Shown here in pieces: positions 58,792 to 61,531 of a stretch of DNA of 64,000 nucleotides. The translations under genes and the position numbers were made by a program. This DNA is from Escherichia phage adrianh. The notes under the pieces were generated by a model. It saw only the letters and a list, made by a program, of their open reading frames with translations. It had not been told where the DNA came from and did no database searches. How positions within the stretch are numbered: the stretch's first letter is position 1; each line of letters begins with the position of its first letter. Location: sequence record MN850614.1; one strand, given 5' to 3'.

Positions 58792-60207
58792 ATGAGCGAA
58801 TTATTTAAACATGCGCACCTTCATGCAGGTCGAACTGAAAATGGTGCTGTAAACCATACTTCACCAATGTCTGCTCTTGTGGACTTTTACAAAGCTGCTG
58901 GTTCAAGCCGTAGCAATGTAGAAATCTTACCAGACCTGTTCTACAAAGCTTTGCGTGAGGATGTTGATGTTGCAGTTCGTATTTTACTGCATATGCGAGA
59001 TGTACGAGAAGGTATGGGTGAGCGTAAAGCCTTCAGAACTGTTTTGCTTCAAGCAATTGAAGATAAAGTTTTAGAGCCTACACAGGTTCTTCGCATTATG
59101 GATAAGATTGCAGAGCTTGGTCGTTTTGATGACTTCAAAATCTTCGTAGGTACTCGTTTCGAGACAGATGCCTTCAAACATTTAGAAGCAGCATTACTAG
59201 ACCCTGCAACAGCAGGTTTGGCGGCTAAGTGGTTACCACGAGTCAAACCACGTCATAAGCAGTTTGTAAAACGTTTCTGCAAGTTTGCCAACTTGAGTGA
59301 GAAAGAGTACCGCACACTGTTGTCTGCACTATCTGATACAGTTGAGCAAAAAATCTCTGCTAATGAGTTTGGTAAGATTGACTACAGTAAGATTCCTTCG
59401 CTTGCTGCTGCACGTTACCAAAAACTGTTTAACCGTAAAGATGGGGAGCGATACAAAGCTTACATCGAGTCCTTATCAAAAGGTGAGACTAAGATTAACG
59501 CTGGTGCTGTTTACCCATACGATGTGATTAAATCTGTCAAGTATGGTAATGCAGATGTTGCTAATGAGCAGTGGAAAGCACTACCAAACTGGATGGCAGA
59601 GGGTGAAAACATTCTATGTATGTCTGATGTTTCAAGCTCAATGTCTTGGGTGAATTTTGGTTCAATTACTGCTCTTGATATTGGTGTATCACTTGCATTG
59701 TATGTGGCAGAACGCAATACAGGTTGCTTTAAGAATGAGTTAATGGTTTATTCAACAAACCCTCACTTCATCGAACTGAGTGGTGATTTACGAAACCGCC
59801 ATCGTCAGGTGATGCGACATGTTGAATATGGTTCAACTAACTTACAAGCAGCTTTTGACCGTATTCTTGAGACAGGTAAAAGAAACAACTTGACTCAGAA
59901 AGATATGCCAAGTAAGCTTATCATCTTCTCCGATATGGAGTTCAATCAGGTTGATGGGGCTAACGGTCGTACAAACTTTGAAGCAATTCAGAGTAAGTAC
60001 AAAAAAGCTGGATATAAGATGCCACAACTGGTATTCTGGTACTTAGCAAACCGTAATGGTACTTGCGAAGTATCTGTTAAGGATAACGGTGTAGCAATGG
60101 TATCAGGGTTCTCTCCAGCCACTTTAAAAGCTCTGCTTGGTGGTGAGAAGTTTGACCCAATCAGCGTAATGCTCAAAGCAGTAATGATTGACCGTTATAT
60201 CTGGTAA
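58792..60207 (+). CDS. Ro60/TROVE-like protein with C-terminal vWA domain
   Basis: 471 aa; MIDAS-like DVSSSM (DxSxS) followed by GSTN and FSDME motifs in the arrangement seen in Ro60; helical N-terminal part. Confidence 0.45.
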   Translation: MSELFKHAHLHAGRTENGAVNHTSPMSALVDFYKAAGSSRSNVEILPDLFYKALREDVDVAVRILLHMRDVREGMGERKAFRTVLLQAIEDKVLEPTQVLRIMDKIAELGRFDDFKIFVGTRFETDAFKHLEAALLDPATAGLAAKWLPRVKPRHKQFVKRFCKFANLSEKEYRTLLSALSDTVEQKISANEFGKIDYSKIPSLAAARYQKLFNRKDGERYKAYIESLSKGETKINAGAVYPYDVIKSVKYGNADVANEQWKALPNWMAEGENILCMSDVSSSMSWVNFGSITALDIGVSLALYVAERNTGCFKNELMVYSTNPHFIELSGDLRNRHRQVMRHVEYGSTNLQAAFDRILETGKRNNLTQKDMPSKLIIFSDMEFNQVDGANGRTNFEAIQSKYKKAGYKMPQLVFWYLANRNGTCEVSVKDNGVAMVSGFSPATLKALLGGEKFDPISVMLKAVMIDRYIW

Positions 60208-60226
60208 AAAAGTTTTAAAAAGGGTA

Positions 60227-60255
60227 TTGACAATGTGTTTGATACCCTTTAATAT
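60227..60255 (+). promoter_or_regulatory. Sigma70-like promoter
   Basis: TTGACA, 17-nt spacer, TAATAT; 8-bp inverted repeat AAGGGTAT/ATACCCTT spans it. Confidence 0.5.
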
Positions 60256-60317
60256 GTTCTACATAGAAACGAAACGAGAGCTTTTCTAAGATACTGAAAA
60301 ATATTTTAAAAAAGTTC

Positions 60318-60347
60318 TTGACAACCACTAAAAAATAATGTTAAAGT
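60318..60347 (+). promoter_or_regulatory. Promoter upstream of the tRNA cluster
   Basis: TTGACA, 17-18 nt spacer, TAAAGT-like -10; inverted repeat ACCACT/AGTGGT spans the spacer. Confidence 0.45.
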
Positions 60348-60373
60348 GGTTACATAGAGTTTGAAAAGTTTAT

Positions 60374-60450
60374 CTCTGTTTAGCTCAGCTTGGTAGAGCG
60401 TTCCGTTTGGGGCGGTAAGGCCGGAGGTTCAAGTCCTCCAACAGAGACCA
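60374..60450 (+). tRNA. tRNA-Pro (UGG)
   Basis: Cloverleaf by hand: acceptor CTCTGTT/AACAGAG, D-arm GCTC-AGCTTGGTA-GAGC, anticodon loop TTTGGGG, T-arm GGAGG-TTCAAGT-CCTCC, encoded CCA. Confidence 0.75.
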
Positions 60451-60457
60451 AATTAAT

Positions 60458-60535
60458 GTTCCAGTAGACAAAATGGTAAAGTCACCACTCTTTCAAAGTG
60501 GATATCTGAGGGTTCAAATCCCTTCTGGAACGCCA
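60458..60535 (+). tRNA. tRNA-Glu (UUC)
   Basis: Acceptor GTTCCAG/CTGGAAC, anticodon arm CCACT-CTTTCAA-AGTGG, T-loop TTCAAAT, CCA. Confidence 0.6.
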
Positions 60536-60542
60536 GTTTTGA

Positions 60543-60615
60543 CAGAAGACCAATTACAGCAAACTTAATCTTATTCATCTGAAGGTAAATCGGACAAAGA
60601 AGAGATTTGGTCTGG
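60543..60615 (+). ncRNA. Stem-enclosed RNA element E1 (Y-RNA-like candidate)
   Basis: 5' CAGAAGACCAA pairs with 3' TTGGTCTGG; same termini family as E2-E4. Confidence 0.4.
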
Positions 60616-60626
60616 TCATTAAGAAT

Positions 60627-60703
60627 TGCGGGTATAGAGAAAGGGCGTCTCACATGTCTCATTAGCATGGTATCGGCAGGTTCGACTCCTGCACCCGCCT
60701 CCA
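60627..60703 (+). tRNA. tRNA with CAU anticodon (Met or Ile2)
   Basis: Anticodon arm CATGT-CTCATTA-GCATG, T-arm GCAGG-TTCGACT-CCTGC, CCA; position 1-72 may be unpaired. Confidence 0.6.
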
Positions 60704-60709
60704 AATTTA

Positions 60710-60773
60710 CAGAAGACCGTTTACAGCAACATTTATTAAATTTTTAGCGGAAAAATTGAAAGATACGGTCTGG
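60710..60773 (+). ncRNA. Stem-enclosed RNA element E2 (Y-RNA-like candidate)
   Basis: 5' CAGAAGACCGT pairs with 3' ACGGTCTGG; compensatory change relative to E1/E3. Confidence 0.4.
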
Positions 60774-60786
60774 TAATACTAAACAT

Positions 60787-60863
60787 GGTTAGGAAGCACA
60801 TAAGGTATGTGCGGTCGCCTGTTAAGCGAATGGCACAGGGTTCGAATCCCTGACTAACCGCCA
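60787..60863 (+). tRNA. tRNA-Asn (GUU)
   Basis: Anticodon loop CTGTTAA, T-arm CAGGG-TTCGAAT-CCCTG, acceptor 3' ACTAACC, CCA. Confidence 0.6.
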
Positions 60864-60932
60864 AATTTAGGAGAGAAGCGATTACTCACCGATTTGTAAG
60901 GTGCAAGTCCTTAGCCTGAATAGAAATTAAAT

Positions 60933-61020
60933 GTGTCGTTATCCCGTAGATGGTAGCGGTGGGGACTGTAAATCCCTTGTCATTGAGACTCGGTAGGTTC
61001 GACTCCTACACGGCACACCA
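60933..61020 (+). tRNA. tRNA-Tyr (GUA), long variable arm
   Basis: Anticodon arm GGGGA-CTGTAAA-TCCCT, long variable arm, T-arm GTAGG-TTCGACT-CCTAC, CCA. Confidence 0.6.
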
Positions 61021-61025
61021 ATAAA

Positions 61026-61103
61026 GGTTATGTAGTTTAATTTGGTTAAAATACTCCCCTGTCACGGGAGATGATGAGGGTTCAAATCCCTTCGTAACCG
61101 CCA
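61026..61103 (+). tRNA. tRNA-Asp (GUC)
   Basis: Anticodon arm CTCCC-CTGTCAC-GGGAG, T-arm GAGGG-TTCAAAT-CCCTT, CCA. Confidence 0.7.
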
Positions 61104-61164
61104 ATTTTGAGAGGGCTATTTAGCCCCTCCCTTAAAGGGTTCTTACGAGTATCCTTTAAAGGAG

Positions 61165-61238
61165 CAGAAGACCAAATACAGCAAGTTACTTAAAATTTCA
61201 AGCCAATTTAATTTTGAAAAATTTAAAACTTGGTCTGG
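61165..61238 (+). ncRNA. Stem-enclosed RNA element E3 (Y-RNA-like candidate)
   Basis: 5' CAGAAGACCAA pairs with 3' TTGGTCTGG. Confidence 0.4.
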
Positions 61239-61251
61239 CTCAACAAATTTA

Positions 61252-61382
61252 CAGAAGACCGTTTACAGCAAAACTTAAACAATCTATTTCTCGGTAAAGA
61301 AAAGGCGAAGGTTCGATTCCTTCACTCGGCAGATGTCGAGTTGGTGTAATGGTAGCACTTAAGATGATAAACAACGGTCTGG
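61252..61382 (+). ncRNA. Stem-enclosed RNA element E4 with internal tRNA-mimic domain (YrlA-like candidate)
   Basis: Terminal stem AGACCGTT/AACGGTCT; inside: T-arm GAAGG-TTCGATT-CCTTC (61307-61323), acceptor-like hairpin ACTCGGC-AGAT-GTCGAGT (61324-61341), D-arm GTGT-AATGGTA-GCAC (61344-61358); no anticodon arm. Confidence 0.5.
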
Positions 61383-61384
61383 TA

Positions 61385-61526
61385 ATTATCTTTGTAGATA
61401 AGTTATTAAGCTTACCTGTGAGTATGCGACCACAAAGGGTGAAAGGGTAAATTCTAGATTTAAACCCAAAAAGGCACATCGCTACAGACCTTAAGCAAGT
61501 CTGGGTAGCTTATCTACAAAGATAAT
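61385..61526 (+). ncRNA. Element enclosed by a perfect 17-bp inverted repeat
   Basis: TTATCTTTGTAGATAAG at the 5' end and its exact reverse complement at the 3' end; internal CAGACC ... GTCTGG hairpin. Confidence 0.4.
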
Positions 61527-61531
61527 TTAAT

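Follow-up and report, generated by a model that had tools for sequence, protein, structure and literature searches.

A candidate Ro60/Y-RNA-type ribonucleoprotein in Escherichia phage adrianh: a Ro60-like DUF2828/DUF7788 protein and a linked family of stem-enclosed RNAs

Ro60/Y-RNA particles are conserved from bacteria to humans, are a major autoantigen and have functions that are partly understood. A candidate particle of this kind is described here from Escherichia phage adrianh (sequence record MN850614.1), of which a stretch of 64,000 nucleotides, referred to as the window, was analysed; it consists of a gene for a 471-residue protein and four RNA elements, E1 to E4, that lie downstream of it among tRNA genes. 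In the bacterial systems, YrlA RNAs have been found beside TROVE-annotated genes in 254 bacteria and 22 phages, a survey in which only TROVE-annotated genomes were searched, and their domains follow the order V, T, closed acceptor and D within a terminal stem (Chen et al. 2014, PMC4201824). YrlA of Mycobacterium smegmatis is cleaved by RNase P and receives CCA. Among phages, the structure of Ro60 from Thermus phage phiLo has been solved; it binds two RNAs that contain CGAA and are encoded upstream, and the resulting complex binds host polynucleotide phosphorylase (PNPase) and attenuates it (Hu et al. 2025, PMC12135203). Protein gp130 of Bas63 (Escherichia phage JohannRWettstein) has been reported to be Ro60-like and to act in counter-defence against ppl, and for its Y RNAs there is a published guess only, that "some tRNA genes may be Y RNAs" (PhageMaP preprint, doi 10.1101/2024.10.10.617714).

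The adrianh locus is probably a phage ribonucleoprotein of the Ro60/Y-RNA kind, in which a divergent DUF2828/DUF7788 protein is matched with an apparently undescribed RNA family. Such a system had been proposed for this locus from its sequence (the original prediction), and the proposal is supported by the Ro60 fold, a gene-linked covarying RNA family and the YrlA-like form of E4. Phage Ro/Y-RNA systems are already known, as are the Ro60 likeness and counter-defence of gp130; the RNA partners, and a distinct phylum-spanning recognition module with modular cargo, some of it tRNA-like, appear to be new. A full-text literature search, in which some key reviews were not covered, found no published description of RNAs of the E1-E4 type or of their motif.

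The open reading frame is present as predicted, with the motifs DVSSSM, GSTN and FSDME. A Pfam hmmscan (E ≤ 1) matched its product only to DUF7788 (3.6e-43, 147.8 bits, cut-off 27.1), which covers the von Willebrand factor A (vWA) part, and to DUF2828 (3.2e-28, 99.2 bits, cut-off 29); phrog_850 ("RNA-binding protein") matches over the full length with E 6e-183. NCBIfam gave no match, phmmer found none in the PDB, and domain searches revealed no nuclease or ligase domain. Residues D279, S281, S283, T349 and D381 do not vary among 40 aligned homologs and make up the MIDAS (metal ion-dependent adhesion site) pattern DxSxS...T...D. HHalign against human Ro60 aligned the vWA half only (E 2e-4, probability 46%) and placed DVSSSM, GSTN and SDME onto DVSASM, GGTD and TDNE (in FTDNE) of Ro60, the arrangement that had been predicted. 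The recovery of 357 phage "Ro-like" genes with the human Ro60 query was taken as validation of that query. The AlphaFold2 model of the protein has a predicted local distance difference test score (pLDDT) of 89.9 and a predicted template modelling score (pTM) of 0.89, and the best nine Foldseek matches to it in the PDB were all Ro60/TROVE chains, aligned over the full length. This structural comparison was called decisive: judged from the model, the protein has the ring-plus-vWA architecture of Ro60, and by sequence criteria it is placed outside the TROVE family. The predicted Ro60/TROVE likeness stood for the fold; at the level of Pfam, DUF2828 and DUF7788 take the place of TROVE.

Homologs were found in 709 of 50,697 phage records, against 357 with canonical TROVE Ro60. 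The phages concerned infect Escherichia, Mycobacterium, Salmonella, Vibrio, Listeria, Staphylococcus, Campylobacter, Enterococcus, Bacillus and Aeromonas. Public records label the protein "hypothetical", "vWFA protein" or "RNA-binding protein", and mycobacteriophage homologs with 33% identity carry the annotation "Ro-like RNA binding protein". Bas63 gp130 is an ortholog, 97.5% identical to the window protein. PhiRo60 of phiLo (PDB 9kop/9l5y) is TROVE-annotated and shares no sequence similarity that the DUF2828 profile could detect; its RNAs Yrl1 and Yrl2 lie upstream of the gene and were chosen by their CGAA motif, and no tRNA-like member has been described for that system.

Downstream of the gene, ARAGORN finds 18 tRNA genes in a cluster on the same + strand. 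The prediction of four elements with shared termini, within 1.2 kb of the gene and among these tRNAs, was borne out. The 20-nt 5' box CAGAAGACCNNTWACAGCAA has exactly four matches in the 64 kb, all on the + strand (60543, 60710, 61165 and 61252), against 0.02 expected, and a count of four was reached in 0 of 100 shuffles; GGTCTGG follows each box after 60-130 nt. The elements lie 334-1177 nt downstream of the gene, always between tRNA genes and on their strand, and the gaps to the tRNA ends measure 5-13 nt. Folding of the + strand with RNAfold gave a shared design: an outer 3-bp helix, an asymmetric internal loop with AGA on the 5' side and G on the 3' side, the helix AGACCNN/NNGGUCU of 7-8 bp, and a loop opened by UUACAGCAA. 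E1 has the outer helix GAC/GUC, the internal loop, the 7-bp helix AGACCAA/UUGGUCU, UUACAGCAA and a variable loop. In E2 the outer helix UAC/GUA is followed by AGACCGU/ACGGUCU and UUACAGCAA, and in E3 AGC/GCU by AGACCAA/UUGGUCU and AUACAGCAA. E4 combines the outer helix UAC/GUA and the closing helix AGACCGUU/AACGGUCU with UACAGCAA, a V hairpin and a tRNA-like core. The covarying nucleotides had been read correctly (ACCAA/TTGGT in E1 and E3, ACCGT/ACGGT in E2, ACCGTT/AACGGT in E4).

Felix O1-like phages (Felixounavirus: LF82P2, FM4b, Mushroom and FelixO1) match the region with 96-98% identity. In every Felixounavirus-type locus examined all four elements stand at the same positions (the sequence of locus L016 stops after E1), with the module conserved and the loops diverging freely. 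The outer 3-bp helix covaries within Felixounavirus, with UGC/GCA in locus L011 as a further variant, but is 58% paired family-wide and was therefore left out of the covariance model. ARAGORN calls none of E1-E4 as a tRNA, and the Rfam tRNA model finds the T arm only of E4 (14.9 bits). No terminator-like site on the + strand coincides with an element; GGUNAU, not a U run, comes after their helices, and promoter and terminator scans gave nothing specific at E1-E4. Public records carry no annotation at the elements themselves. The idea that the GCA following UUACA is a resume codon like that of transfer-messenger RNA (tmRNA) was rejected, as the frames are inconsistent and the elements are unmatched by tmRNA models. 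The positions of all features are collected in Table 1.

Table 1. Features of the locus, with positions in the window unless a compared locus (L number) is given.
Feature	Position	Strand	Basis
Ro60-like protein gene, 471 aa; N-terminal helical-repeat ring and C-terminal vWA with complete MIDAS	58792-60207	+	Pfam DUF2828 and DUF7788, structure model
E1, short Y-like RNA	60541-60617	+	covariance-model match, 44.5 bits, E 4e-6
E2, short Y-like RNA	60708-60775	+	covariance-model match, 52.6 bits, E 6e-8
E3, short Y-like RNA	61163-61240	+	covariance-model match, 45.8 bits, E 2e-6
E4, long Y-like RNA with YrlA-type architecture	61250-61384	+	covariance-model match, 34-37 bits, E 4e-4 to 8e-4
Circularly permuted tRNA-like core of E4	61307-61358	+	minimum free energy fold; arms compared across lineages
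Possible fifth member, 144-nt RNA with 24-bp perfect closing stem, directly after E4	61384-61527	+	fold z-score -5.5
tRNA genes Pro, Glu, Met, Asn, Tyr, Asp, flanking E1 and E2	60374-61103	+	tRNA search and Rfam
tRNA genes Lys, Met, Ile, continuing the same cluster	61532-61765	+	tRNA search
Sigma-70-like promoter TTGACA-18-TAAAGT upstream of the Ro60-like gene, within an inverted repeat	58723-58752	+	consensus match only
Two sigma-70-like promoters (60227-60255, 60318-60347) before the tRNA/Y-like RNA cluster	60227-60347	+	consensus matches only
Elements with encoded CCA	L013 8461-8578; L018 5378-5508; L084 6154-6288; L081 5119-5239		arm comparison
Copies in the 5' untranslated region	L017 5966-6005; L019; L020 2328-2363; L022 5946-5986; L024 5950-5985; L053 4051-4109; L072 5902-5943; L079 5909-5944; L085 3938-4015		model and sequence scans

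The elements belong to a family that extends well beyond these close relatives. Loci were compared around homologs of 39-99% identity (80 from IMG/VR) and of 27-52% identity (six annotated phages). In the distant loci, a common module lies on the gene strand immediately up- or downstream of the DUF2828 gene; it consists of a 7-bp helix whose 5' strand begins with AG and runs straight into (U)WCAGCAA, and whose 3' strand ends in CU before a G. It stands beside the homologous gene in phages of Klebsiella, Cronobacter, Campylobacter, Mycobacterium, Listeria and Staphylococcus, and also on dozens of IMG/VR contigs; the hosts cover four bacterial phyla (Proteobacteria, Firmicutes, Actinobacteria and Campylobacter). 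The helix sequence differs per locus, for example GGUUCC/GGAACC, GGAUGC/GCAUCC, GAUUAA/UUAAUC, GGACACA/UGUGUCC in a GC-rich mycobacteriophage, AGGAAUC/GAUUCCU in a Listeria phage and AGACAC/GUGUCU in a Staphylococcus phage. When 32 short elements representing at least 14 lineages are aligned with MAFFT, CAGCAA is invariant; the 7-bp helix is 99% paired, with compensatory changes at 7 of 7 pairs, and sliding the partners by 1-3 columns lowers pairing to 32-43% (28-48% across both alignments). The letters conserved throughout the family are AG...WCAGCAA...CU-G.

A covariance model built from these elements (R1) returned 76 matches at E ≤ 1 when both strands of 921 kb were searched. All 76 are on the gene strand, mostly within about 2 kb of the gene, and many were absent from the seed; in the 64-kb window the model finds E1-E4 only. 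The second-round model (R2) placed 78 of 78 matches on the gene strand, and in an alignment fitted to the model the 51 best matches are 100% paired with 125 double-sided changes. Neither model matched anything in the control locus of mycobacteriophage ET08 (L082), which carries a TROVE-type Ro. The covariation that had been expected of the terminal helix in related phages was thus found, together with strand-specific model matches. About 40-47 of 69 loci contain a model match, and the DUF2828 gene is the sole common partner, since any other neighbouring ORF family recurs in at most 15 of 72 loci. An earlier Python scan for the "core plus 6-7 bp helix" had a chance background of 20-45% (a 7-bp helix was found for 23% of control heptamers, compared with 47% for ACAGCAA) and was for that reason replaced by the covariance models. 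At gathering score, Rfam reported only tRNAs and one tmRNA in 10 other loci. E1-E4 are members of this strand-specific, gene-linked RNA family, whose 7-bp AG/CU-G helix encloses a (U)WCAGCAA loop.

The remainder of the loop is variable cargo, which in E4 is a circularly permuted tRNA-like domain as in YrlA. Its core runs from the T arm GAAGG-UUCGAUU-CCUUC through the closed acceptor-like stem ACUCGGC-AGAU-GUCGAGU and UG to the D arm GUGU-AAUGGUA-GCAC, and every arm, the V hairpin included, is present in the minimum free energy fold. E1-E3 have no tRNA-like domain. Equivalents of the core occur in at least seven lineages; in eight of the nine elements checked from seven lineages the T, acceptor-like and D arms are contiguous and paired, the exception being the D arm of L084, which is unpaired in a hand parse. 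The acceptor-like stems differ and covary (ACUCGGC/GUCGAGU, ACCCUUC/GAAGGGU, ACUCCCC/GGGGAGU, UCGCUCGG/CCGGGCGA and others). The Rfam YrlA model RF02553 (gathering 69 bits) did not match E4 even when E4 was searched alone at E ≤ 10. As a positive control, it finds the genuine YrlA of ET08 at 37.4 bits. It also matches RNAs at DUF2828 loci, namely those of Klebsiella phage FBKp34 (L083, 39.6 bits), L018 (38.2 bits) and mycobacteriophage Lolly9 (L086, 37.7 bits), with E 3.5e-5 to 1.2e-4, which is below gathering and at the level of the control. These three alignments start after WCAGCAA, so that WCAGCAA lies outside the YrlA consensus.

Compared with the bacterial Rsr-YrlA/YrlB systems of Salmonella, M. 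smegmatis and cluster C mycobacteriophages, the adrianh locus likewise has a ring-plus-vWA gene that adjoins several small RNAs on the same strand. E4 shares with YrlA the order V, T, closed acceptor and D inside a long terminal stem, E1-E3 resemble YrlB in being shorter and lacking a tRNA-like domain, and the UUAC directly after the stem in the E1-E4 family recalls the YUAY of YrlA. As in the Salmonella rsr-yrlBA-rtcBA operon, tRNA and RtcB genes occur in the neighbourhood, and equivalents in the three DUF2828 lineages named above score as high with RF02553 as a genuine phage YrlA. Unlike Rsr, the protein is DUF2828/DUF7788 and not TROVE by sequence; unlike in YrlA, GNCGAAN0-1G is replaced by the AG...CU-G helix with WCAGCAA, RF02553 leaves E4 unmatched while the new model is blank at the ET08 TROVE locus, and E1-E4 are interleaved with tRNA genes. 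With permuted two-piece tmRNA and permuted tRNA genes, E4 shares a T arm and 3' acceptor strand encoded before the 5' acceptor strand and D arm and, in several lineages, CCA encoded in the joining loop; it differs from permuted tmRNA in having no pseudoknots, tag reading frame or resume codon context, and Rfam tmRNA models do not match it. The locus differs from metazoan Ro60/Y RNA (RF00019) in having no sequence-level TROVE match and no bulged GGUCCGA-type helix, in not being transcribed by Pol III, and in the tandem copies within a tRNA operon. In the Bas63 report the elements went unidentified; the real ones sit between the tRNA genes.

Encoded CCA was seen as a side observation. In several lineages a discriminator plus CCA (GCCA or ACCA) follows the closed acceptor-like stem in the joining loop, which suggests that RNase P cleavage could yield a two-piece, CCA-ended RNA in these lineages, as reported for M. 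smegmatis YrlA; the joining loop of E4 is the 4-nt AGAU, with no CCA. "Long tRNAs" of 113-121 nt also lie beside the DUF2828 gene in Cronobacter phage S13 (L084 5895-6015 and 6025-6137) and Klebsiella phage FBKp34 (L083 6003-6116). They have a full cloverleaf and score 41-57 bits with the Rfam tRNA model, ARAGORN does not call them, and an insert of 52-55 nt, a hairpin (..CU-loop-AG..) followed by UWCAGCA, takes the place of the anticodon loop. No anticodon could be reconstructed from these forms, which look like a non-permuted counterpart of the E4 architecture.

Several results weigh against a Ro60/Y-RNA particle at this locus. The TROVE domain PF05731 gave no Pfam match at E ≤ 1, and a family profile of 40 sequences reached Ro60 chains in the PDB at E 0.5-1.2 only, at the MIDAS site. 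Rfam has no family for E1-E4 at E ≤ 10, so that the proposed likeness to known Y RNA families failed at the level of covariance models (Y_RNA and YrlA both unmatched; RF00019 without a match at E ≤ 10 in 58000-64000). The canonical Ro-binding motif GNCGAAN0-1G, or CGAA, is absent from E1-E4, in which the 5' box is (N)ACAGAAGACC. Single-sequence folding energies of the elements are unexceptional (z -0.8 to -1.8) and were not counted as evidence. The seed elements were picked with a pairing criterion, which makes the percent-paired figure partly circular; for the same reason the strand and position specificity of the covariance model is taken as the independent support. E-values of the model are rough, its calibration having been shortened. 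Roughly a third of the DUF2828 loci have no model match in their 6-kb flanks; several of these carry variant cores such as UUGCAGCAA.

Other explanations of the elements have also been considered. They could be cis-acting sites for the protein, operators or sponges that control how the gene is translated or the tRNA operon matures, and not released, stable, trans-acting RNAs of the Y type. At least nine other loci do carry a copy in the 5' untranslated region at the Shine-Dalgarno sequence or start codon, and the window elements are embedded in a polycistronic tRNA transcript. The explanation is nonetheless unlikely for E1-E4: box search and covariance model found no 5' copy of this kind in the window or elsewhere in Felixounavirus, E1-E4 are found 330-1180 nt downstream, preceded by separate promoter-like sites, tandem copies with elaborate tRNA-like cargo are hard to fit to operators, and the known Ro partners are free small RNAs. 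The hairpins may instead be punctuation or processing signals of the tRNA operon, or targets of RNase E, RNase III or Hfq/ProQ, with the DUF2828 gene nearby by accident. Distances of 5-13 nt from tRNA ends and the frequent location of DUF2828 genes inside tRNA clusters fit this account, which is rather improbable given where the module does and does not occur. In Staphylococcus phage S-CoN_Ph12 three copies come right after the stop codon with the nearest tRNA 2.1 kb off, and in mycobacteriophage Lolly9 three copies follow the gene with the nearest tRNA 2.6 kb upstream; the other tRNA spacers of the window (61600-63340) and the ET08 tRNA/TROVE locus contain no copy, and no element has a terminator-like U tract on the + strand.

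A more elaborate proposal is that the module marks tRNA-derived RNAs for cutting and rejoining, as intron-like or split/permuted tRNAs handled by RNase P, CCA addition or an RtcB-type ligase, with the protein as assembly platform and not as a quality-control ring gated by Y RNAs. It can draw on the "long tRNAs" of S13 and FBKp34, in which a hairpin with UWCAGCA replaces the anticodon loop, on (N)CCA encoded right after the acceptor 3' strand in L013, L018, L084 and L081, on the RNase P cleavage and CCA gain of M. smegmatis YrlA and on RtcB in a Listeria phage locus. It is highly doubtful, as E4 has an AGAU loop without CCA, E1-E3 have no tRNA part, the long forms yield no anticodon, and the protein lacks a nuclease or ligase domain. 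That the elements are non-functional repeats (decayed tRNA genes, for instance, or mobile-element remnants) is very unlikely and scarcely worth entertaining. The elements are AT-rich, repeated and situated between tRNA genes, and homing-endonuclease genes are inserted here in some relatives; against this, position and module are kept in all Felixounavirus loci while the loops diverge, compensatory changes occur at 7 of 7 pairs, the module is found in phages of four phyla, and the differing sequences argue against recent horizontal copies of one mobile DNA.

If the locus encodes a Ro60/Y-RNA-type particle, E1-E4 would be transcribed together with the tRNAs, starting from the promoter-like sites 60227 and 60318. 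Maturation of the tRNAs would release them as RNAs of about 70-140 nt, with RNase P cutting at the 5' end of the tRNA that follows and 3' trimming acting on the one before. The protein is inferred to bind E1-E4, and would do so through the conserved helix and WCAGCAA module of each RNA, leaving the variable loops, including the tRNA mimic, to draw in other factors or act as decoys for them. By analogy with RYPER and the phiLo Ro60 complex, the candidates are host exoribonucleases, PNPase for example; by context, tRNA enzymes and RtcB-type repair enzymes (RtcB being present in the Listeria phage locus) may be added. The outcome could be an RNA metabolism altered in the favour of the phage, counter-defence included.

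A broader reading, to be held tentatively and at somewhat less than even confidence, is that DUF2828/DUF7788 proteins and AG-helix/WCAGCAA RNAs form a phylum-spanning, unrecognised class of phage ribonucleoprotein with a tRNA-based scaffold, acting as a mimic or decoy of a broken tRNA, or as a platform for repair or exonucleases, against defences such as ppl. The scaffold of a broken-tRNA mimic would be a tRNA whose anticodon loop is swapped for the protein-binding module, in normal or circularly permuted order and in some cases with encoded CCA. In the permuted form the ends of the RNA would fall at the position of the anticodon loop, as in a tRNA cut by an anticodon nuclease.

Phage versions of Ro60/Y-RNA have been studied only recently, in a single TROVE-type example. 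The DUF2828 family, which includes Felix O1, Bas63, Listeria P100-like, Staphylococcus and Campylobacter phages and cluster L-type mycobacteriophages, gains a concrete and testable set of RNA partners with a defined recognition module (about 20 conserved nucleotides plus a covarying helix) and modular cargo. The published guess about Y RNAs is replaced by exact coordinates, in a phage whose protein has a ppl counter-defence phenotype. The permuted and non-permuted tRNA mimics provide a natural pair for studying how Ro-type rings read RNA.

The 144-nt RNA directly after E4 may be a minimal fifth binding site. It contains the mini hairpin AGAC-CUUAAGCAA-GUCU-GG at 61486-61504 and is conserved in Felixounavirus loci; in L013 and L014 the outer stem and mini hairpin change in a compensatory manner, the latter from AGAC-CUUAAGCAA-GUCU-GG to AAACC-CUUUAGCAA-GGUUU-G. 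Its membership is tentative, since the covariance model does not detect it. In the Bas63 record (L089 3930-4204), two small opposite-strand ORFs, bas63_0137 and bas63_0138, are drawn over the region of E4 and the long hairpin; they are probably spurious. In the record of phage Mushroom (L001, NC_041923), the tRNAs are listed on the strand opposite to that given by ARAGORN and Rfam.

At least nine loci (Table 1) have a short copy in the 5' untranslated region of the DUF2828 gene whose 3' strand abuts the Shine-Dalgarno sequence or start codon, which suggests translational autoregulation in the phages concerned. In L017 the 3' strand overlaps the start codon, and L019 has the same AAUGUC at the same position. 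In Listeria phage LMTA-34 (L087 6808-8019), genes for an RtcB-type "tRNA splicing ligase", a "tRNA amidotransferase" and a metal-dependent phosphohydrolase are found 1.3 kb from the Ro-like gene and its three elements, an arrangement that recalls the Salmonella rsr-yrlBA-rtcBA operon.

Immediately upstream of the Ro-like gene of the window, in the same orientation, lies a gene (58339-58710) for a 123-residue product with a basic, glycine-rich N-terminus, assigned to PHROG 4114 and to DUF5681 in RefSeq. Inverted repeats span the -35 to -10 region of every promoter-like site near the Ro-like gene (58723-58759, 60219-60250 and 60318-60360), as in AAAGGGTATTGACA...TGATACCCTTT at 60219-60250. Further along the cluster, a tRNA-like gene at 62014-62092 was missed by ARAGORN and scores barely over gathering with the Rfam tRNA model (31.7 bits); it has the acceptor stem CGGGGCG/CGCCUCG with a G3:U70 pair, encoded ACCA and an odd D region. 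The 570-nt gap from tRNA-Ile to tRNA-Ser has a strong promoter-like site of its own (61781-61809). Sub-gathering Rfam matches to permuted tmRNA (29.4 bits, E 0.004) and tmRNA (16.3 bits, E 0.0015) fall in this gap, at 61705-62012, and L013 has a similar weak match of tmRNA type. A genuine circularly permuted tmRNA (RF04321, 90.9 bits) is encoded at 2000-2281 of L053, a viral contig, 2 kb upstream of the DUF2828 gene.

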